Assembly (NCBI GenBank): GCA_045533195.1
Contig: JAZSHI010000024.1
Location: 448-64,447 of the forward strand
Origin: Acutalibacteraceae bacterium
Lineage (GTDB): Bacteria > Bacillota > Clostridia > Oscillospirales > Acutalibacteraceae
Direction of reading: 5' to 3'
DNA length: 64,000 bases
Part shown: piece after piece, positions 33,348-54,881 of the stretch
Numbering within the stretch: position 1 is the first letter of the stretch
How the letters are laid out: the number at the start of each line of letters is the position of its first letter
Notes under the pieces: generated by a model
What the model was told of the DNA's origin: nothing
What the model saw: the letters and a program-made list of their open reading frames with translations, nothing else
Databases searched by the model: none
Program-made: the position numbers and the translations under genes

Positions 33348-33424
33348 GGCGATATAGCTCAGTTGGCTAGAGCATGCGGTTCATACCCGCAGTGTCGTAG
33401 GTTCAAGTCCCACTATCGCCACCA
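33348..33424 (+). tRNA. tRNA-Met (CAT), elongator-like
   Basis: Cloverleaf folded by hand. Acceptor GGCGATA/TATCGCC and anticodon loop TTCATAC. One A-C mismatch in the T stem. CCA is encoded. Confidence 0.85.
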
Positions 33425-33428
33425 ATAC

Positions 33429-33504
33429 GGCCCGGTGGTCAAGAGGCCTAAGACACCGCCCTTTCACGGCGGTAACACGAGTTCGAATCTCGTCCGGGTC
33501 ACCA
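33429..33504 (+). tRNA. tRNA-Glu (TTC)
   Basis: Near-identical to the B. subtilis tRNA-Glu as I recall it. Anticodon loop CTTTCAC. CCA is encoded. Confidence 0.9.
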
Positions 33505-35963: not shown

Positions 35964-35980
35964 AATAACTCCTTTATAAT

Positions 35981-36222
35981 AAAAAAGTGCGGCAACCGAA
36001 GTTACCGCACCGAAAAACGCAAACTCCGATTGTCGCCAAACAAATTACAAGTAATGAGGATTTACACACACAATAGCTTGTAGGAATTTGCGGTTTTGCA
36101 AAATTTACAAAAATATTGTATGTGTATAAAAGGGTATAATACCCCCATAAAAACTGTAATCCTCCTAAAATATGCAATTTGTTTGGCGTATTTAGTATAT
36201 CACAGAAAAAAACAAAATACAA
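35981..36222 (-). ncRNA. candidate structured leader/sRNA: promoter, ~155-nt imperfect hairpin, terminator
   Basis: Minus-strand TTGTAT-N17-TATACT (36194..36222). Perfect 13-bp arms at 36176..36188 and 36034..36046. Terminator GTGCGGYAAC stem plus T6 at 35981..36010. Confidence 0.4.
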
Positions 36223-42268: not shown

Positions 42269-42345
42269 TGGCGCGCTGTAAGAGATTCGAACTCCTGGCC
42301 TTTTGGTCCGTAGCCAAACGCTCTATCCAGCTGAGCTAACAGCGC
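42269..42345 (-). tRNA. tRNA-Arg (ACG)
   Basis: Reverse complement reads GCGCTGTTAGCTCAGCTGGATAGAGCGTTTGGCTACGGACCAAAAGG...ACAGCGCGCCA. Anticodon loop is CTACGGA. Confidence 0.9.
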
Positions 42346-44730: not shown

Positions 44731-44952
44731 TTATGCTTTCATTATACTCATGAAAATCCCAAAAACAATGGTTACAACAATAATAATCAGACACAGCTTT
44801 GCAATTTTTAGCAAAAAAGCAATACCCATTATCCAGGATAAAAGCAACGCTCCTATGGCAAGTATTGCACAGCCAAGAACGATTTTTCCCGTTGCGCACT
44901 TTGCCCAAAGGATTATCAGACCTGCTATAACCAATAAAATCACCCAAAACAT
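44731..44952 (-). CDS. small hydrophobic membrane protein
   Basis: 73 aa with three predicted TM segments. AAGGGGA RBS upstream. Confidence 0.5.
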   Translation of the reverse strand: MFWVILLVIAGLIILWAKCATGKIVLGCAILAIGALLLSWIMGIAFLLKIAKLCLIIIVVTIVFGIFMSIMKA

Positions 44953-45275: not shown

Positions 45276-45449
45276 TTAATATTTTCTGTTTATAACCCAA
45301 GAATGCGGTTGAGGTCTGCCCAATTTGTTTTTAGGTCTGCGAGAACAACTGCCGGGTTGAGGTCTTCCGAAGTTACTGAGCTGTGTGCTTCTGGCTCCAC
45401 ACCATCTGCACATATACTCAACCTTCATAATCTTTTTTCCTGTAGGCAT
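45276..45449 (-). CDS. 57-aa basic CxxC mini-protein with duplicated GRPQP motif
   Basis: ORF 45276..45458. GAAAGGA abuts the first ATG and is better spaced (9 nt) for the ATG at 45449. Contains CRWCG, FGRPQPGSC and LGRPQPHSW. Confidence 0.6.
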   Translation of the reverse strand: MPTGKKIMKVEYMCRWCGARSTQLSNFGRPQPGSCSRRPKNKLGRPQPHSWVINRKY

Positions 45450-45492
45450 TAAAACCATTCCTTTCTGTTAATATTTTATTGCTTTTTAATTT

Positions 45493-48174
45493 TTAAATAA
45501 GTAAATCTGCAATTATTTTTTCTGCTGATAAGTCGGTTAGTTGTACTTTGTCAACAAATTCTGCAATACCCGAAATTTCACCTACGCAATATTTATATTG
45601 ATGACTTACTGTAAATTCGTTTTCCAAATTAAGCTTAATCTTTATGTTTGATTCAACCGATACCTTTTCGGGAGTTTCCAGCAGCGAACTCACAAGGGCT
45701 TTATCCATCTGTGTTTCAATAGTTTTCTGTCCTAAATTTAAGCTGATTTTCCCTTTTGTCTCGTCATACTCTCCGTAGCTTATTGCGTTTACGGGGATTT
45801 CGAACAGATTAATTAAAGATTCCTTGTTAATTTGTTTTAAGGCTTCGATTTTTTTCTCTATTTCCTTGGCGAGTAAGAAACTTTCCTCAACCTGTTTTTC
45901 TTTTTCTTTCTTCATAGTATCTGCTGTTTCATTTGCAAATTCGCATACATCAGAAACAGCTTTTTTAAACTCCGAAACACCATTTTTTGCCTTTTTCTCG
46001 AAATGCTCGGGAACATCACGAAGGAACTCGTTCATAGTTTCCGACGCTGAAAGAATACATTCGCACCTTTTTGCACACTCTGCATCAATTTTCTGCAGTA
46101 TGTCGGGAAGTCTTTCTTCCAATTCCTTTGCAAAAACAAGTTGCTTTTCTTTTTTATCATTTAATAGAGCAGTAACATTATCAAATAAGTTTTGGTCTAA
46201 TAACGTGGCAAAAAGCAGAGCGCATCTCTCATACAGATTTTTTACTGCAATTTCTTTTGCAATATCCTCATAAACATTCTGAGTCTCACATATTTTCTTG
46301 CTTTCTTTTTCTACATCATATACAATTTCCAATTTTTCGTTAATGATAAGACTGTTTTGGGTGTTATTATAAAACTTAAATATAAATTCTTTGAAGGCAT
46401 CGTAATCCAACTGCATTGCTGCAAGAAAAACCGCGCCAAAACCGTCGGAAGTTAAAGAATTAAAACAGTCATTTTTGTTTTTTAAGGTTTCTAAAACAGG
46501 GATACTTGTAAATCTTGCGGCGATTAACGGAAGATTTAAGCCGTCTGCATCTATGAATTCTGCGTATTGGTTACTCTGGGTAACCTCTTTAGTATCACCG
46601 TTGATTGCGTAGGTCTTAAGCAATGAGGAAATGGCATTAATCATCCGGTTGTACTCTTCTTCAAGGTGTTCTATGCTACTGCTTACCTCATCAGAATTTT
46701 TATACTTTTCCTCGTCTTTTTTAAGAGAATCCAGCAAAGAACGGCTTTCTATATACTTGAATTCCAAAAGAGCAAGATTGATTTCTGCACAGCGAACATC
46801 AAAGGAGTCCTTGACTTTTTTAGCATCTTCAATTAATTTATGCGCTGTATCGAATTTACCTACTTGCATATAATATACAGCTTTACTGTAGAGATGTAAG
46901 CAATATTCGTCAAGATGCTCATTTTTGTGTTTTTCCACCGTATCCTTCAAGCAATAGCCTAAGGCTTCATCACTTGCAATTTTTGTGTAAAATTGGCTAA
47001 GCTCATAAATTTGACTGTATTCGTATTGCTTAAGCAAAAGCTCAACGAGAATTTTAAACGCCTCTGTTTTTTCTTTTACGAGCTCATCAGGAGCGCCGGA
47101 AATGGCGGCATTTACTGTGTCAGACGCACTTTCTAAAGAGTCATGCTTCTCAAACATTTTCGCCATATTTATGCTTTTTTCAATCCATTCTCTTTGTTCC
47201 TTCAAATAACGCTGATATAGAGTTTCTCTTAGTTTTTCAACAGTTTTCAACCGATTTTCTTTTTCAGAAGAACTAATTAGGTTATGCTCATATAATTCGT
47301 CTATGGTTGCTTTGGCTAAATCAGGCTTCTCGGCTTTCAGCTCAATCTCAAGCTTTAAATTGTAATATTCTTCTTTTACGTCATCTGAAAAATCATCTCT
47401 TATTTCCTGATTTTGCAGTAAACCAAGAGCACCCTTTAAATTGCTTTCTTTTTCAGCCTTTCTCGCCTTTTCAACGGCTGCTTTTAAATCAGCAAGGTCT
47501 TTTGCATAGGTTTCACGGAAATTTGATATAGCTTCTTTTGCAGTCTCGATAAATTCCTTTGCATTGTCGAAGGAAGCGTAAGAAGCTTCATACATATTTA
47601 AAAGCTCCTCTGCTTTATCCATATTTTCAAGATATATGTAGGCTTGAATATAAAGAGCGCGGTAAACCATTAAATCTTCAAAAGAGGTATTCCTTTCGTA
47701 TCGCTTTTGTTTATCCAGTAATTCAAGGTAATTCTCAATATCGCTTTCGTTTGAAAGTGCTTCTCGGAGTTTATTTATGTCGATAGGATCACCAAGTTTA
47801 TGCAAATTATATATTAATTTACCCACACCTATTGCGTAGTTCGGAGATTTTCCGTTGACTGTAACGTTATCACCCTTTAAAGACACGTTGCTTTTTAAAA
47901 GTTGGTCATAGGTTATACTCTCAATCACTCCAAATGACCGCCCGTATATTTTCTTGTCTGTAAAACAGGTGCCATCTTTTGCAGAGCCAAAAAGGGTAGA
48001 GTCATACAAAGCATACACCGTTTCTGTATTGGGAATATTCATATAATATTTGGCGTTTTGCAGTTTCTTTTCGGGGATTGTATTAAAATAATAGCTTATA
48101 CCGCTATACTCTTTGAGCACTTGTTTAACATCATCAATCATAGTGCCTGTTGATTGTTTATTTGTTTCAGACAT
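45493..48174 (-). CDS. 893-aa protein: putative N-terminal membrane-proximal module plus long helical/TPR-like region, no enzymatic motif seen
   Basis: AAGGAGGG RBS 5 nt upstream. N-terminal IPEKKLQNAKYYM...VYALYDSTLFGSAKDGTCFTDKKIY. The remainder is rich in K, E and L. Confidence 0.85.
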   Translation of the reverse strand: MSETNKQSTGTMIDDVKQVLKEYSGISYYFNTIPEKKLQNAKYYMNIPNTETVYALYDSTLFGSAKDGTCFTDKKIYGRSFGVIESITYDQLLKSNVSLKGDNVTVNGKSPNYAIGVGKLIYNLHKLGDPIDINKLREALSNESDIENYLELLDKQKRYERNTSFEDLMVYRALYIQAYIYLENMDKAEELLNMYEASYASFDNAKEFIETAKEAISNFRETYAKDLADLKAAVEKARKAEKESNLKGALGLLQNQEIRDDFSDDVKEEYYNLKLEIELKAEKPDLAKATIDELYEHNLISSSEKENRLKTVEKLRETLYQRYLKEQREWIEKSINMAKMFEKHDSLESASDTVNAAISGAPDELVKEKTEAFKILVELLLKQYEYSQIYELSQFYTKIASDEALGYCLKDTVEKHKNEHLDEYCLHLYSKAVYYMQVGKFDTAHKLIEDAKKVKDSFDVRCAEINLALLEFKYIESRSLLDSLKKDEEKYKNSDEVSSSIEHLEEEYNRMINAISSLLKTYAINGDTKEVTQSNQYAEFIDADGLNLPLIAARFTSIPVLETLKNKNDCFNSLTSDGFGAVFLAAMQLDYDAFKEFIFKFYNNTQNSLIINEKLEIVYDVEKESKKICETQNVYEDIAKEIAVKNLYERCALLFATLLDQNLFDNVTALLNDKKEKQLVFAKELEERLPDILQKIDAECAKRCECILSASETMNEFLRDVPEHFEKKAKNGVSEFKKAVSDVCEFANETADTMKKEKEKQVEESFLLAKEIEKKIEALKQINKESLINLFEIPVNAISYGEYDETKGKISLNLGQKTIETQMDKALVSSLLETPEKVSVESNIKIKLNLENEFTVSHQYKYCVGEISGIAEFVDKVQLTDLSAEKIIADLLI

Positions 48175-48185
48175 TTTTACCCTCC

Positions 48186-49184
48186 TTACACAGCCTCTAG
48201 ACGTGCAATATACTCTTGTCCGCGCATAAGACTTTCCATAGATTTTTCTTCCAATTCGCCTTCCTCATTAAGAAGGGATGTATCTATTATGGCTTTTATG
48301 GTAATTGCAAGTTGAACACAAGCGTAAATGGATTTCCTTTCTTCATCACTATATTTGCTGTAATCCTCGCCGGATGTATTGATAATATCACACATATTAT
48401 TAACAGCGCATACAAAGAATTGATTCAGTATTTGTAAAATTCCGTTTAACTGACTTGCTCTTACCATTATTCCGTTAAGCACAATGCAGGTACTAAGCAC
48501 TTGCTCGTTAAGTGTCTGCGCCCGTAAATATTCGGATTCGGCATCATTAAATTTTTTCTTTGCCTGACTAGCAAAAATAGAGCCTGCAAGAGAAATTACC
48601 GAACCAACATTTAATCCTTTAAGCACCGCGGCTCCGCCTGCCATACCCAAACCTCCGGCAGCCTTTGCGCCTCCGCCCAATAAAGCTAATGCGTGTTTAG
48701 ATGCCGCCGCACCGGCTAAGCCGCTATGGGTAACGGTACGCAAAACAACGGCTTGTGTACCTTTTGAAACGAGACTTCCGATAGCAATTGAAGCGGCTCC
48801 GCCCATTGCGAGATCTTTTGCTGCAATGGCGGCTTCTTTTATTTCAAGAATTTCTTGTTTGTGTTCGGTGAAATGTTTTAATTCATTAATTCCTTCGGTT
48901 TCCTTGAAATTGACATTTTTGATTCTTTCAAAATTGGTCACAAAATCACTCATACTTTCTGCAAGTATATGGATTTTGGTGTCGGCAAACTTTTCCAGCC
49001 TGTCCATTGCTCTGTTATTGGCATTTTCCATATTTTGTTTTGCGGTATCAGAAAGCTGTTCTGCCTGATTTTTTAGCTCTTTGGCAGTTGAAAGATCGTT
49101 AGCTCCGTCAACACCCTTCTTGACACCATGGGCAGCAGAAGCAATTGATATTGCGCCGAGTATTAATGGAATAAATATTGGCAT
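48186..49184 (-). CDS. 332-aa helical protein with N-terminal hydrophobic helix and central Gly/Ala-rich amphipathic segments
   Basis: AAGGGGG RBS. N-terminus MPIFIPLILGAISIASAAHG. Central AMGGAASIAIGSLV...GLAGAAASKHALALLGGGAKAAGGLGMAGGAAVLKGLNVGSVISLAGSIFA. Confidence 0.85.
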   Translation of the reverse strand: MPIFIPLILGAISIASAAHGVKKGVDGANDLSTAKELKNQAEQLSDTAKQNMENANNRAMDRLEKFADTKIHILAESMSDFVTNFERIKNVNFKETEGINELKHFTEHKQEILEIKEAAIAAKDLAMGGAASIAIGSLVSKGTQAVVLRTVTHSGLAGAAASKHALALLGGGAKAAGGLGMAGGAAVLKGLNVGSVISLAGSIFASQAKKKFNDAESEYLRAQTLNEQVLSTCIVLNGIMVRASQLNGILQILNQFFVCAVNNMCDIINTSGEDYSKYSDEERKSIYACVQLAITIKAIIDTSLLNEEGELEEKSMESLMRGQEYIARLEAV

Positions 49185-49199
49185 AATATAACCCCCTTA

Positions 49200-50549
49200 T
49201 TAAAATTCTAATACTAAAGAATCGTCCATCATAAATTCGTCGAATTCTTCAAAGTTTTTAAACTGAATGGTTCCTCCAACTTCAGCGGTTATGGTATTTA
49301 ATGCCGAAGTTAATAAATCTATATTATTGGTATCTAAGGCTGTTGCTAAGGAAATAAGACTTTCTTTGAAAACCTTTTGACGTTTTTCCGACTCAATAAA
49401 GGTGCTGTTAAGAAGAAATTCTCTTTCCTCTTTTATAACATTTATAGCCTCTTGAGAGAGAACTCTGATTTCATTCAGACGTTGGGATGAGACCATTTCC
49501 TCCTCAAAAACATTCATAGCATACTTATATAATTCGCTGTAAACTGCTGTTACGATTGTGGAAGATGCCGCTTGCGTTAAAGCCGCCGCTACCCCCTTCA
49601 TACCCATTGAAAGAGAAATAGACGTACCGATGGAAGTACCCCACGCCTGTGACACCTGAAACAAACCGTCCTGTCCGATTTTAAGGAAAAACTGTGTATC
49701 TGTGATTTCACCGTTAATATATTCTTTAAAATGCTCCTTGACGTTTTCTGCCGTTGCTGTCAGCTCATTTAAGTCAAGATATTTTGAAATTTTCAGCTTT
49801 TCGCAGGCTTTGACTATGTAGTCATTAATTGCTTCTTTAGATAATTCACCGACTTTTTGAGTGGCTGCCTCGGTTAAAGACATTTCTCCGTTAATTAAAT
49901 TTTTGGCAGTATCAATAGCCTCGCCTGAAATACCGAATTTTTCGGTTGCTTTTGAAACAACACCGTCAATAGCCTTATGCTTTATTTCGTCCACCGTTTC
50001 AGTAACAGAATTTTCGATTATCTCTTGAGCAGACATACTTCCGTCTAAAAAACCGTGTAGATTTTCAATTCCCTTGTTTAAAAGCGTTTGTGTCGAATCG
50101 GTTGCAAATAAATCCGCCTTTTTAACGGCATCAGTCTTATATTTTTTACTTTCAAGTTTTTTGTGTTTTTGTGCGAAAGAGTCGGAAACATTTTTCTGTA
50201 TTCTGTCGCACAACATTTCCGGTAAAACTTCTTTGGTTTTTGACAGCACTGCGTTTTTTGAAATTTCTAATGCTTCACTTATATTTGCATCTTCATTCTC
50301 AATACCTTCCAGTCCGCTTGAAAGACCTGCATATACAATAGAGTATATACCGCTTTTTATATCTGAGGATTTACTGTTTTCTTGGTTACTGTTAAATGTA
50401 TCATAAAGTTCGTCAACCTTTTGGTGTACTGCGGATGCAGTCGCTTCCTTTAAGGATGATTTTTCTTCAACCATTTGGGCGCCGCCGTTTATTAATACAC
50501 AAATAACCTCGGATAAAGCATCTGTATCTATTTTTGAATTAATTTTCAT
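49200..50549 (-). CDS. 449-aa helical protein with one Gly/Ser/Ala-rich hydrophobic hairpin
   Basis: GAGGTGA RBS. Hairpin region AWGTSIGTSISLSMGMKGVAAALTQAASSTIVTAVY is flanked by long predicted helices. Confidence 0.85.
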   Translation of the reverse strand: MKINSKIDTDALSEVICVLINGGAQMVEEKSSLKEATASAVHQKVDELYDTFNSNQENSKSSDIKSGIYSIVYAGLSSGLEGIENEDANISEALEISKNAVLSKTKEVLPEMLCDRIQKNVSDSFAQKHKKLESKKYKTDAVKKADLFATDSTQTLLNKGIENLHGFLDGSMSAQEIIENSVTETVDEIKHKAIDGVVSKATEKFGISGEAIDTAKNLINGEMSLTEAATQKVGELSKEAINDYIVKACEKLKISKYLDLNELTATAENVKEHFKEYINGEITDTQFFLKIGQDGLFQVSQAWGTSIGTSISLSMGMKGVAAALTQAASSTIVTAVYSELYKYAMNVFEEEMVSSQRLNEIRVLSQEAINVIKEEREFLLNSTFIESEKRQKVFKESLISLATALDTNNIDLLTSALNTITAEVGGTIQFKNFEEFDEFMMDDSLVLEF

Positions 50550-50577: not shown

Positions 50578-51552
50578 TTACTGATTTGAATAATTATTTA
50601 TAATCTTTTCTGCTTCCTGACGAATGCTTTGAGCAAATTCCTTTGGGCTTATTACCGTTACCCATGCGCCCTGACTTAAAATCCACATTTTAATGCCGTC
50701 GCCATAGGTTTCGGCTTCTATTAAGTATTTGTTTGCTCCTGTTCGTTCAATGACTTTGGCGGTGGGAAGCTTATCGAGAACTGCCTGAACCGACGGGCCG
50801 GAAAATTCAAATCTTATTTTACGAAGTTTGCCGGGCCACATAAAGAGACTTCTTTTGCGAAGTAATCCTTCGTCGAAGTCGCGGAAATCATCATCGCAAA
50901 ATTTCTTTCGGTGTTCGATTATATTCTTTATTCTGTCAAGGCGGAAATAATACGGTTTTTCCGTATTGCCCTCACACACAAAGGCGATTAAGTAAAAATA
51001 ATAATCGGTGAACATAACCGAGGCAGGCCGCAGACGGTGTGTAACCCATTTCCTATCCATTCGGTAGTATTCAATTGATATTTCCTTTTTCTCGGTAATG
51101 CAATTAGTAATCTGCCATAGTCTATCCTGCACACTTGCACAATCGTGCTTAACCTCGGGGTAGTGATACAGCTCTTTTCGGATAAGCTCTGCAAGATTTG
51201 TCTTATTGTCACCCGTAGTAAAGCGCTTGAGCTTATTGATAAGCGTTAAAAGCTCATCCCTTGAAAAAGCGCGCGCCCCTATTATAACCTCCACAAGAGC
51301 AAAAAGCTCTTTATTGCTTAAAAATTCATCCATAAAAAGATGATAACATTTATTTTTATGTGAGTATTCCAACTCTGTGTTACCCACAAGTTCACGATTA
51401 TCAGAGAGAAACGCCTTTAAATCGGCAATGTTTCGGCTAACGCTTTTGGTAGATACGCCGTATTCGTCAGCGAGTTTCGAGACCGATATGTCTTCACCTC
51501 GAAGAGCACGGAAGAAAATCTCCAAAATTCTGTACTGCTTTGTGTTTTCCAT
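50578..51552 (-). CDS. HTH-WYL-WCX transcriptional regulator (BrxR/CapW/PafBC-like architecture)
   Basis: ORF 50578..51585, likely ATG at 51552. N-terminal HTH (YRILEIFF...VSKLADEYGVSTKSVSRNI) and WYL-like core ISIEYYRMDRKWVTHRLRPASVMFTDYYFYLIAF. Confidence 0.8.
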   Translation of the reverse strand: MENTKQYRILEIFFRALRGEDISVSKLADEYGVSTKSVSRNIADLKAFLSDNRELVGNTELEYSHKNKCYHLFMDEFLSNKELFALVEVIIGARAFSRDELLTLINKLKRFTTGDNKTNLAELIRKELYHYPEVKHDCASVQDRLWQITNCITEKKEISIEYYRMDRKWVTHRLRPASVMFTDYYFYLIAFVCEGNTEKPYYFRLDRIKNIIEHRKKFCDDDFRDFDEGLLRKRSLFMWPGKLRKIRFEFSGPSVQAVLDKLPTAKVIERTGANKYLIEAETYGDGIKMWILSQGAWVTVISPKEFAQSIRQEAEKIINNYSNQ

Positions 51553-51600
51553 TTTTTTAATCCGCCTTTGTAACTTTAAAATCATTTTATAAAATTACTC

Positions 51601-51616: not shown

Positions 51617-51629
51617 CATAAAAAAACTA

Positions 51630-51663
51630 AAATAAAAAATGCGCAGCCGAAGAGGCTACGCAC
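51630..51663 (-). terminator. intrinsic terminator inside the 5' leader of the WYL-led operon
   Basis: Minus-strand GCGTAGCC-TCTTC-GGCTGCGC followed by ATTTTTTATTTT. Confidence 0.7.
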
Positions 51664-51806
51664 GAAAATCATACCCTCTGCTGTTTAAGGTTGCTGGACA
51701 CTTAAATTAAACTTTGTTGCAAAGTCAGCCAGCGGGTATGGTTTTACCATAACCGGTTTTGCAACAAAAGATTAAAATAAACCGATTTTAACTTAAATGT
51801 CCAACA
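51664..51806 (-). ncRNA. candidate structured leader RNA (three-tier ~110-nt hairpin)
   Basis: Arms 51790..51803 and 51695..51708 (GGACATTTAAGTT / AATTTAAGTGTCC). Inner arms TTGTTGCAAA / TTTGCAACAA. Apex GGTTATGG-TAAAA-CCATACC. Confidence 0.45.
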
Positions 51807-51811
51807 TAGTG

Positions 51812-51840
51812 ATTATAACATAAACACTTTTATTTGTAAA
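51812..51840 (-). promoter_or_regulatory. sigma-A type promoter (TTTACA-N17-TATAAT)
   Basis: Minus-strand hexamers at 51835..51840 and 51812..51817. The predicted start site falls at the 5' arm of the leader hairpin. Confidence 0.65.
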
Positions 51841-53922: not shown

Positions 53923-54423
53923 TTAGTGATATTTGTAGGGATCAGTGTGAGTATTTTCCCCTACAAAATTTATTATATTTTTGTTATTCTCCATTGCATA
54001 TTTGACCGTTTTATATGCTCCGCCGTGGTTGTGTTCAATATACGAGATAATAAGGTCGGCTCTATCTACCATTTCGCGATTTCGGATTTGTATGGCTGAT
54101 TTGGGGTGCGAATAAGATGCGCTATAGGAAATTTCAACTTCGCTGTAATATTCTTCGAAATATTTTTTATTGTTATTATATTCGGCAGTTAAATAGGGCA
54201 AAACAAGAATTAAAGAGCTGTTATCATCTCTATAGGTTTTTCTGACTTTGCGAATAACAGAGGAAACAATTTTATCAAATTCGCCGTTACGTCCTACCAG
54301 AAAATCCACATATTCCTTTTCATCAATGAGCTTTTTTATTTTTTCTTCCAGTAATTCCTCTATCCTTAAAGGATTTTCTATATATCTGTGACCGAAAAAA
54401 GCAACCGTGAAAATATTTAGCAT
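53923..54423 (-). CDS. SLOG / DUF1273-like protein (paralogue 2)
   Basis: N-terminal VAFFGHRYI motif. Same size and layout as 12226..12711. Confidence 0.6.
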   Translation of the reverse strand: MLNIFTVAFFGHRYIENPLRIEELLEEKIKKLIDEKEYVDFLVGRNGEFDKIVSSVIRKVRKTYRDDNSSLILVLPYLTAEYNNNKKYFEEYYSEVEISYSASYSHPKSAIQIRNREMVDRADLIISYIEHNHGGAYKTVKYAMENNKNIINFVGENTHTDPYKYH

Positions 54424-54540: not shown

Positions 54541-54569
54541 ATACAATAACAAAAAGAGAGGTGTTCACG

Positions 54570-54881
54570 ATGGATTTGCAGTTTATAAGAGACAGAATTT
54601 CAGTTTTAAGAACAAAAAAGAATGTATCTGAATATAGAATGAGTACTGATTTAGGTCATAGCAAAAGTTATATACAAAGTATTTCATCCGGTAGGTCTGT
54701 ACCTTCACTTGGAGAATTTCTTTATATCTGCGAATATCTTGGTGTGACACCTAAAGAATTTTTTGACCAAGATATTAAAGAACCTCTACTTGTCAGCAAA
54801 TTATATGAATTAGCACAAAATATGTCGGAAAAAGATTTAGAAGTGCTTATCAACACAGCTGAACGTCTTAATGACAGATAA
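54570..54881 (+). CDS. XRE-family helix-turn-helix protein
   Basis: ORF 54561..54881. ATG at 54570 follows AGAGAGGTG. HTH segment EYRMSTDLGHSKSYIQSISSG. Confidence 0.75.
   Translation: MDLQFIRDRISVLRTKKNVSEYRMSTDLGHSKSYIQSISSGRSVPSLGEFLYICEYLGVTPKEFFDQDIKEPLLVSKLYELAQNMSEKDLEVLINTAERLNDR

Follow-up and report, generated by a model that had tools for sequence, protein, structure and literature searches.

Two adjacent minus-strand genes in a 64,000 nt window from an Acutalibacteraceae bacterium (the window being the whole stretch of DNA that was analysed) encode homologues of DinA and DinC, two proteins of the anti-phage system Dionysus. The 449 aa product of the first gene is termed B and the 332 aa product of the second is termed A. 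Homology of this pair to DinC and DinA is a near-certainty. A defence role of the window module is decidedly likely, and the overall picture, in which the pair forms the core of a Dionysus-type anti-phage module, is fairly likely; literal pore formation falls somewhat short of an even chance. The two genes and the main parts of their products are as follows.

49200-50549, minus strand: B protein, 449 aa, DinA-family partner of the effector
49203-49532, minus strand: conserved C-terminal module of B, residues ~340-449, ending G..QF..F.EFD.FM.D...F; best-conserved part of the B alignment
49536-49667, minus strand: Gly/Ala/Ser-rich hydrophobic segment of B, residues ~295-338, with charge-free runs at 295-317 and 319-338
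48186-49184, minus strand: A protein, 332 aa, DinC-family (PADLOC PDC-M09A) candidate membrane-acting effector
49125-49184, minus strand: N-terminal hydrophobic helix of A, residues 1-20, MPIFIPLILGAISIASAAHG, Kyte-Doolittle 1.95
48570-48812, minus strand: Gly/Ala-rich hydrophobic centre of A, residues ~125-205; its glycine-zipper-like core is invariant

Dionysus is a three-gene anti-phage system of Pseudomonas aeruginosa described in a preprint of September 2025. It consists of DinA (557 aa, annotated as 'MAEBL + TM', TM standing for transmembrane), the TerB-like DinB (211 aa) and DinC (340 aa), the last described from AlphaFold3 models as an alpha-pore-forming toxin with four TM domains and a structure like those of Hbl, Nhe and ClyA. 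Protection against phiKZ-like jumbo phages exceeds 10^6-fold; all three genes are needed, and Pseudomonas lost its defence when DinB was deleted. In the AlphaFold3 prediction the DinA C-terminus and DinC form a 1:1 complex. After infection, cells carrying Dionysus were propidium-iodide negative and viable, with no early-infection vesicles or phage nuclei, and DinA and DinC formed foci at the infection site or vesicle, inside the cell. The authors concluded that DinC targets the phage vesicle, not the host membrane (bioRxiv 10.1101/2025.09.30.679545). Reports of Dionysus have so far come from Gamma- and Betaproteobacteria, and reviews from 2026 cite it and add no mechanism.

The Dionysus sequences compared here are those of Table S1 of the preprint, and L numbers denote homologous loci with an A-family gene, 85 of which were used for synteny and 91 for accessory-gene counts. 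DinC matches the 332 aa protein directly (BLASTP E 7.8e-26, 30 % identity over 324 aa) and matches the A-family profile over its full length with E 4.8e-103. Likewise, residues 1-400 of DinA match a profile made from B and its relatives (E 1.5e-24). The Table S1 DinA ends at residue 400, ahead of the region best conserved in B, which limits direct comparison. B is, however, bridged to DinA through L003, whose B protein matches the window B with E 8.5e-24 and is 35 % identical to DinA; with L006 included, identity to DinA is 34-35 %. More generally, B is homologous, mainly in its C-terminal half, to unannotated ~500 aa neighbours of distant A genes (further matches at L006, E 4e-12; L004, 1.7e-8; L001, 1.5e-6). 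A single-sequence search with B found just 16 close relatives. The published loss-of-function residue DinA H326 is not mappable, the Table S1 representative having K at 326.

The PADLOC model PDC-M09A matches the 332 aa protein nearly over its full length (residues 33-304; E 2.7e-15 and 8.1e-14) and DinC with 8.4e-25, and all A-family members tested match it nearly over their full length. On these sequence and profile matches the window pair is identified as a DinA/DinC pair. A preliminary description of this DNA had picked out the two adjacent open reading frames (ORFs) and their Gly/Ala-rich hydrophobic segments, and its coordinates and quoted segments were all found; its statement that no direct sequence match exists gives way to the clear matches to Dionysus and PDC-M09A. 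No match above threshold to Pfam, NCBIfam or PHROGs was obtained with the 449 aa and 332 aa proteins or with an 893 aa protein encoded next to them, and Protein Data Bank (PDB) sequence and profile searches for A and B returned coiled-coil noise only.

In single-sequence searches, A had many homologues, ~330-345 aa long, from Bacillota, Pseudomonadota, Planctomycetota and further phyla. When 1.84 billion representatives were searched with the family profile, 6,569 clusters at 50 % identity were obtained with E <= 1e-3 and 1,949 with E <= 1e-30, and a scan of one genome per species placed the family in at least 302 species of many phyla, with a patchy spread. The closest named relatives of the window proteins belong to Ruminococcaceae/Oscillospiraceae metagenome-assembled genomes. 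Among the top A-family representatives, roughly one in four is extended at the C-terminus by 100-400 aa (P0188-P0316); one of these has Sel1 repeats (P0190), most have no Pfam domain and there are no TerB fusions.

Anatomy of the two proteins

Hydropathy is given as Kyte-Doolittle maxima over 19 residues. In A, the segment AMGG...GSIFA spans residues 126-205 and the N-terminal MPIFIPLILGAISIASAA is also present; the maxima are 1.95 at the N-terminus, confirming the hydrophobic helix with which the preliminary description had the protein begin, and 1.49 at the centre. Across the A family, charged residues make up a fraction of 0.00-0.01, and Gly+Ala 40-70 %, of residues 1-20 and ~125-200, and the central region reaches at least 1.6 in 81 of 86 members. 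The invariant columns are P6, G20, L156, G158, A161, A167, G170-172, G177, G178, G180, G184 and G201, and the best-conserved columns of the entire protein fall in the central Gly/Ala region. The conservation of hydrophobic and Gly residues is thus a property of the family. Hydrophobicity of A and of B is uncorrelated across loci (Spearman 0.13, p 0.34).

The first 20 residues of A are uncharged family-wide, with no Sec-type signal; as a basic n-region is lacking, the helix is not a classical Sec signal peptide. B was said to have no signal peptide, and its hydropathy bears this out, the N-terminus having no hydrophobic stretch. An exported binary toxin directed at other cells, which the resemblance in topology to ClyA/Hbl/Nhe-type toxins might suggest, is exceedingly improbable given these N-termini: the operon contains no secretion-system genes, the same architecture occurs in diderm and monoderm phyla, and DinA and DinC localise inside the cell.

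In B, AWGTSIGTSISLSMGMKGVAAALTQAASSTIVTAVY occupies residues 302-337, and the hydropathy maximum is 1.2 (residues 319-337). The hydrophobic peak of the B family lies at a fixed distance of ~125 residues from the C-terminus (interquartile range 121-129) and reaches at least 1.6 in 43 of 55 members. The C-terminal ~110 residues are the conserved core of the family, and this module corresponds to the DinA C-terminus docked on DinC in the AlphaFold3 model of the preprint. No internal repeats were detected in the 449 aa protein.

Partners of ~800 aa stand beside a DinC-like gene at L023:4818-7229, L034:4873-7194, L045:4802-7189 and ~12 other loci. These B variants match BnzB of the Bunzi system (E 1e-43 to 3e-53) and have the last ~100 residues alone in common with DinA-type proteins. 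Since the BnzB-like variants share only the C-terminal module, the B family is modular, with a variable N-terminus, a hydrophobic segment and a conserved module; sequence comparison suggests that this portable C-terminal module is common to Bunzi and Dionysus. A further type of B (~545 aa), from Moraxella and Psychrobacter, matches the unpublished PADLOC model PDC-M40B (1.2e-30 for L005:8130-9764, Moraxella caprae), and some sources annotate it as DUF1994 or 'DNA repair protein'.

An AlphaFold2 (AF2) model of A, built from an 86-sequence alignment, has a predicted local distance difference test score (pLDDT) of 66 and a predicted template modelling score (pTM) of 0.63. Confident helices span residues 13-85, 100-127, 202-271, 280-300 and 313-331, giving long helices with a central hydrophobic insert, in general the layout that the Dionysus authors describe for DinC. 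Foldseek placed AhlC (probability 0.75), the ClyA pore (0.72) and AhlB among generic long-helix proteins; for these three the probability is 0.33-0.75, E 0.14-0.54 and the template modelling (TM) score 0.21-0.33, with a central region of pLDDT below 50. The search of ClyA-type folds that had been proposed for this pair thus returned AhlC and ClyA as weak matches, and significance was not reached. A separate match to the A model is the 336 aa viral model A0A5C2IFQ2 in BFVD (probability 1.00, TM score 0.47), which, as judged from the models, is probably a virus-encoded DinC-family member.

The preliminary description had drawn an analogy with two-component alpha-pore-forming toxins. Its ClyA/Hbl/Nhe side holds through the homology to DinC, as the authors of the preprint call DinC a pore former of this kind, acting intracellularly; its XaxAB/YaxAB side fails on the relation between the two proteins. 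If A and B together made a binary pore of the XaxAB/YaxAB type in the host's cytoplasmic membrane, leading to abortive infection, the adjacency of the genes, the conserved hydrophobic Gly/Ala segments in both proteins and the presence of AhlC and ClyA among the weak best PDB matches of A would all be accounted for, and many defence effectors do kill by depolarising the host membrane. However, A and B are unrelated by profile comparison (hhalign probability 1.2 %), and the C-terminal module of B is joined to interchangeable N-termini in the manner of an adaptor. Its modularity makes B a better fit for an adaptor or sensor than for the second subunit of a pore. Additionally, the Pseudomonas cells carrying Dionysus took up no propidium iodide and survived, which speaks against a binary pore of this type and also against the proposed action on the producer's own membrane. 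Such a pore is therefore considered unlikely.

Membrane remodelling or tethering, in which A would resemble the stalk and paddle of bacterial dynamin-like proteins and bend, tubulate or seal membranes, is quite improbable. Long antiparallel helices with a hydrophobic tip would fit a paddle, and the A family weakly matches the C-terminal, non-GTPase parts of PADLOC LeoBC and LeoA (E 2.4e-5 to 3.6e-8); the window 332 aa protein itself matches the helical C-terminal part of LeoBC partially, with 2.4e-5. These matches are, however, short and lie in coiled-coil, low-complexity regions. No GTPase domain is present in the operon proteins, and neither the PDB profile search nor the 50 best Foldseek matches included a dynamin-like protein or LeoA.

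Operon, accessory genes and leader RNA

The pair lies in a tightly packed minus-strand operon with a WYL-regulated layout, with gaps of 28 nt between the WYL gene and B, 15 nt between B and A, and 11 nt between A and X893. Its other features are listed here.

51812-51840, minus strand: promoter-like site TTTACA-17 nt-TATAAT with TG extension, 11/12 consensus positions
51622-51811, minus strand: conserved structured leader, ~190 nt, between the promoter-like site and the WYL gene
50578-51585, minus strand: WYL-type transcription regulator, 335 aa (HTH_11 + WYL + WCX); the true start may be Met12
45493-48174, minus strand: X893, 893 aa helical, clade-specific protein, 11 nt downstream of the A gene
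45276-45458, minus strand: small Cys-containing (zinc-ribbon-like) ORF, 60 aa, downstream of X893
44731-44952, minus strand: small multi-TM ORF, 73 aa, conserved in some sister loci

The regulator matches Pfam WYL (3e-8), WCX (7.8e-6) and HTH_11 (9.2e-6), all over the cutoffs, and the PADLOC WYL model with 1.2e-22. The cytoplasmic context under a WYL regulator that had been described for the pair is borne out, the stop of the WYL gene lying 28 nt upstream of the B start codon. Across the homologous loci, drawn from many phyla, the B gene is adjacent to the A gene and on the same strand in ~81 of 85, with most exceptions at contig ends; the pairing of A and B counts as obligate. Together with the many homologues, this synteny shows that neither ORF arose by chance. 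A homologous WYL gene stands upstream of the module in 20 of the 85. At two loci (L089:6408-7625 and L090:2525-3742) an otherwise intact operon is split by an IS110-family transposase that has inserted between its B and A genes, and in L089 a YpsA-family (PF06908) gene and HTH genes are located upstream of the WYL gene.

Accessory genes vary. By a count from Pfam-verified seeds with a stricter seed-based search, a TerB-like gene is present in 56 of the 91 loci and absent in ~35. A CxxCxxCC-type (PF03692) gene occurs in 31/91 and a GIY-YIG-like gene in 11/91, and a further 11 loci have none of the three. DinB matches accessory-gene profile 'C' with E 2e-8, a profile that is impure, mixing TerB, CxxCxxCC and GIY-YIG-like proteins. 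The small PF03692 proteins recur downstream of the pair, for example at L004:9995-10282 and L005:9757-10014, and at four loci (L014:9037-9738, L019:9038-9739, L070:9042-9743, L028:5161-5778) the CxxCxxCC protein is fused to a GIY-YIG-like domain. In P. aeruginosa Dionysus an unrelated 70 aa zinc-ribbon gene follows dinC. Given this recurrence together with the 70 aa gene, Cys-rich small proteins look like a recurrent, non-homologous fourth component.

The clade of the window comprises the window, L007, L008 and L089-L094, and none of its members has TerB. Pfam TerB does not match the operon proteins. The clade layout is WYL, an optional GIY-YIG-like gene of 145-149 aa, B, A, a protein of 887-1025 aa and small genes. 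The 145-149 aa genes are GIY-YIG-like, not TerB. Orthologues of X893 (887-1025 aa) were found in L007, L008, L089 and L091-L094, only within the clade; X893 has weak TPR matches only in Pfam, and its PDB sequence search was empty. A hidden TerB in X893 was rejected by hidden Markov model (HMM) searches and hhalign, the latter detecting no relation of X893 to TerB, A or B.

The 60 aa Cys ORF has no Pfam match and is homologous to the 86-88 aa genes that follow the X gene in L007 and L008 (E 4e-11 and 3e-10); in L093 and L092, X is followed by proteins of 86 and 88 aa that share this Cys-rich core. The 73 aa multi-TM ORF shares 62 % identity with an 81 aa ORF located after X in L007, and 29 % with a 76 aa ORF beside the WYL gene in L008.

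The strong promoter-like site is a consensus match only, in a region not enriched for such sites; in L007 and L008, too, the leader is preceded by equivalent -35/-10 boxes. The leader is predicted to fold as a nested hairpin of ~150 nt followed by an intrinsic-terminator-like stem with a T-run (51630-51663); its RNAfold minimum free energy is -65.6 kcal/mol (z = -5.97), and an alternative pairing of 51745-51730 with 51680-51665 is possible. It is present ahead of the WYL gene in four loci of the clade, namely the window, L007:3148-3339, L008:4075-4268 and L093:1597-1790 (nhmmer E 1e-53 to 1e-61; 202-227 bits with a covariance model). Nucleotide identity in the leader is 76-91 %, against 68-77 % in adjacent coding sequence and 46-61 % in the 150 nt upstream. 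Of 53 predicted pairs, 2 show compensatory and ~12 one-sided pair-preserving changes, which include G.U pairs on the sense strand that are mismatches on the other strand. Conservation of structure across four sequences only is suggestive, not proven. No Rfam family matches the leader, three pattern scans (two of metagenome contigs, one of viral contigs) found no further copies, and the covariance model found it solely in its four training loci. A weak match to the model at window 35969-36194 (minus strand; 24.6 bits, E 0.014 on a rough calibration) is probably due to chance. The leader could serve as an attenuator or riboswitch-like element, or it could be a small RNA.

The flanks and neighbours of the pair bear on a non-defence envelope function, such as membrane stress or repair, or a sporulation membrane pair whose mobility is incidental. 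PEPCK, MatE and SpoIIID genes around the operon would suit this, as would the first link of TerB, which was to stress resistance, and the origin of the phage data, no member of the Bacillota being among the sources. Homology to an experimentally validated defence system argues otherwise, as do the patchy distribution across phyla and the repeated neighbourhood of restriction-modification (R-M), Cas, RnlA, Mrr and mobile-element genes: one homologue is near type I-E Cas genes and an integrase, another near RnlA, and others near DpnII R-M, AIPR and Mob/Rep genes, near a KAP NTPase with Mrr, or near transposases. WYL regulators of the BrxR/CapW type are, in addition, typical of defence operons. 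An envelope function is accordingly very improbable.

Elsewhere in the window, a 166 aa protein without a Pfam match at E <= 1e-5 (53923-54423, minus strand) adjoins an XRE-type HTH gene (54561-54881, plus strand) just past pckA. Three tRNA genes are present, at 33348-33501 (plus strand) and 42272-42345 (minus strand); the latter is located between a transglutaminase-like gene and spoIIID, ~2.4 kb away from where the defence islet ends.

Proposed mechanism and its weighing

In the Dionysus-type reading, the WYL protein would repress the operon until an infection-linked signal arrives; in regulators of the BrxR/CapW type, repression is relieved on infection. B would position or hold A through its conserved C-terminal module, and its variable N-terminal part would supply target recognition. 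On activation, A may insert its glycine-zipper-like helices into a lipid bilayer and oligomerise, in a switch from soluble to membrane form like that of ClyA-type proteins, and so disrupt a membrane needed by the phage. The target could be the host cytoplasmic membrane, with abortive infection, or a phage-induced compartment, the latter as reported for Pseudomonas Dionysus. The role of TerB might be taken by X893, with or without the small zinc-ribbon and TM proteins.

Several observations weigh against this reading. One preprint, on a distant proteobacterial system (30 % identity) in which the host membrane stays intact, is the sole source of functional data, and pore formation by family members is a model-based proposal. 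The AF2 model of A has low confidence at residues 1-20 and 128-208, with the central region below pLDDT 50, and its Foldseek search against the PDB gave nothing significant (best E 0.12, TM score ~0.3). For B, the AF2 model (all-helical, pLDDT 55, pTM 0.30) is unreliable and, built from 21 close relatives, too poor for a fold search. In both families hydrophobicity is lowest in the window's clade, with the window copies among the least hydrophobic members. The A proteins of the clade carry 2-6 Lys/Arg in the Gly/Ala core; the window A has 5 in its central segment, and 55 of 76 other members have none. Given this low hydrophobicity and the five basic residues, constitutive membrane insertion is doubtful for the window copies. 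Likewise, hmmsearch, jackhmmer and tblastn found no TerB-like ORF in the 64-kb window, the flanks are housekeeping or sporulation genes with no defence island, and tblastn of the 332 aa protein against plasmid and phage collections gave no match.

For the window's clade, a TerB-independent re-wiring of the Dionysus pair may be tentatively proposed, in which X893 and the small proteins replace TerB as the sensor or membrane-surveillance part and the leader RNA gates expression ahead of WYL; this is possible, if rather doubtful. If true, the DinA/DinC core would be a portable, general-purpose membrane-attack cassette that extends beyond jumbo-phage defence and can come under control at the RNA level. 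As a whole, the family gives the impression of a modular cassette for membrane attack whose sensors can be exchanged, and its TerB-less variants would be natural test cases for the role of TerB and for the target membrane of the effector. The DinA/DinC core is far wider than the phiKZ-linked Gamma- and Betaproteobacteria, extending over many phyla and thousands of clusters. As far as the searchable literature shows, the size and breadth of the family, the equivalence to PDC-M09A, the link of the module to BnzB and PDC-M40B, and the absence of TerB in about one-third of loci go beyond published work.

Comparison with known systems

In its predicted topology A is compatible with the ClyA family (ClyA, Hbl, Nhe, AhlB/AhlC), having a long helical bundle, a mid-sequence hydrophobic insert and an N-terminal helix. 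It differs in that the insert comprises ~80 Gly/Ala-rich residues, as against a short beta-tongue or hairpin, and in not being exported; Pfam, NCBIfam and PDB searches found no sequence or profile homology of A to ClyA, Hbl or Nhe. With XaxAB and YaxAB the window pair has in common two adjacent genes and helical proteins with hydrophobic tips. However, the two subunits of XaxAB, and likewise those of YaxAB, have related structures and are exported, whereas A and B are unrelated and intracellular.

Bunzi (BnzA with TerB and TM parts, and BnzB; Millman et al. 2022) is similar to Dionysus-type loci in its TerB-associated, membrane-linked components. The window differs in having no TerB and nothing that matches BnzA; the window proteins gave no match to the BnzA or BnzB models even at E <= 10. 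The WYL regulator is of the same build as BrxR and CapW, with HTH, WYL and WCX domains encoded immediately upstream of the regulated operon, and differs in that a conserved structured leader, including a terminator, lies ahead of its gene; to our knowledge, no such leader has been described for BrxR/CapW-type regulators. PDC-M09, the source of the model that matches A, is an unpublished candidate without a published description, and no second component model of it matched the window B.

The closest system is Dionysus. DinC has its full-length homologue in A, and the DinA family is represented by B; the two genes lie side by side in the same orientation, both systems have the conserved N-terminal hydrophobic helix and Gly/Ala core, and in both a small Cys-rich gene is located downstream. 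The window differs in having no DinB/TerB gene, in an identity to DinC of only ~30 %, and in its softened hydrophobic segments, with Lys/Arg in the A core. It adds the WYL regulator, the 893 aa protein, the small TM protein and the structured leader. Its host is probably a spore-forming member of the Bacillota, as SpoIIID is present, where phiKZ-like vesicle-forming phages are not known. The Dionysus kind of system was thus known already; what is new here is a TerB-less, WYL-regulated variant from the Clostridia with X893 and small accessory genes.

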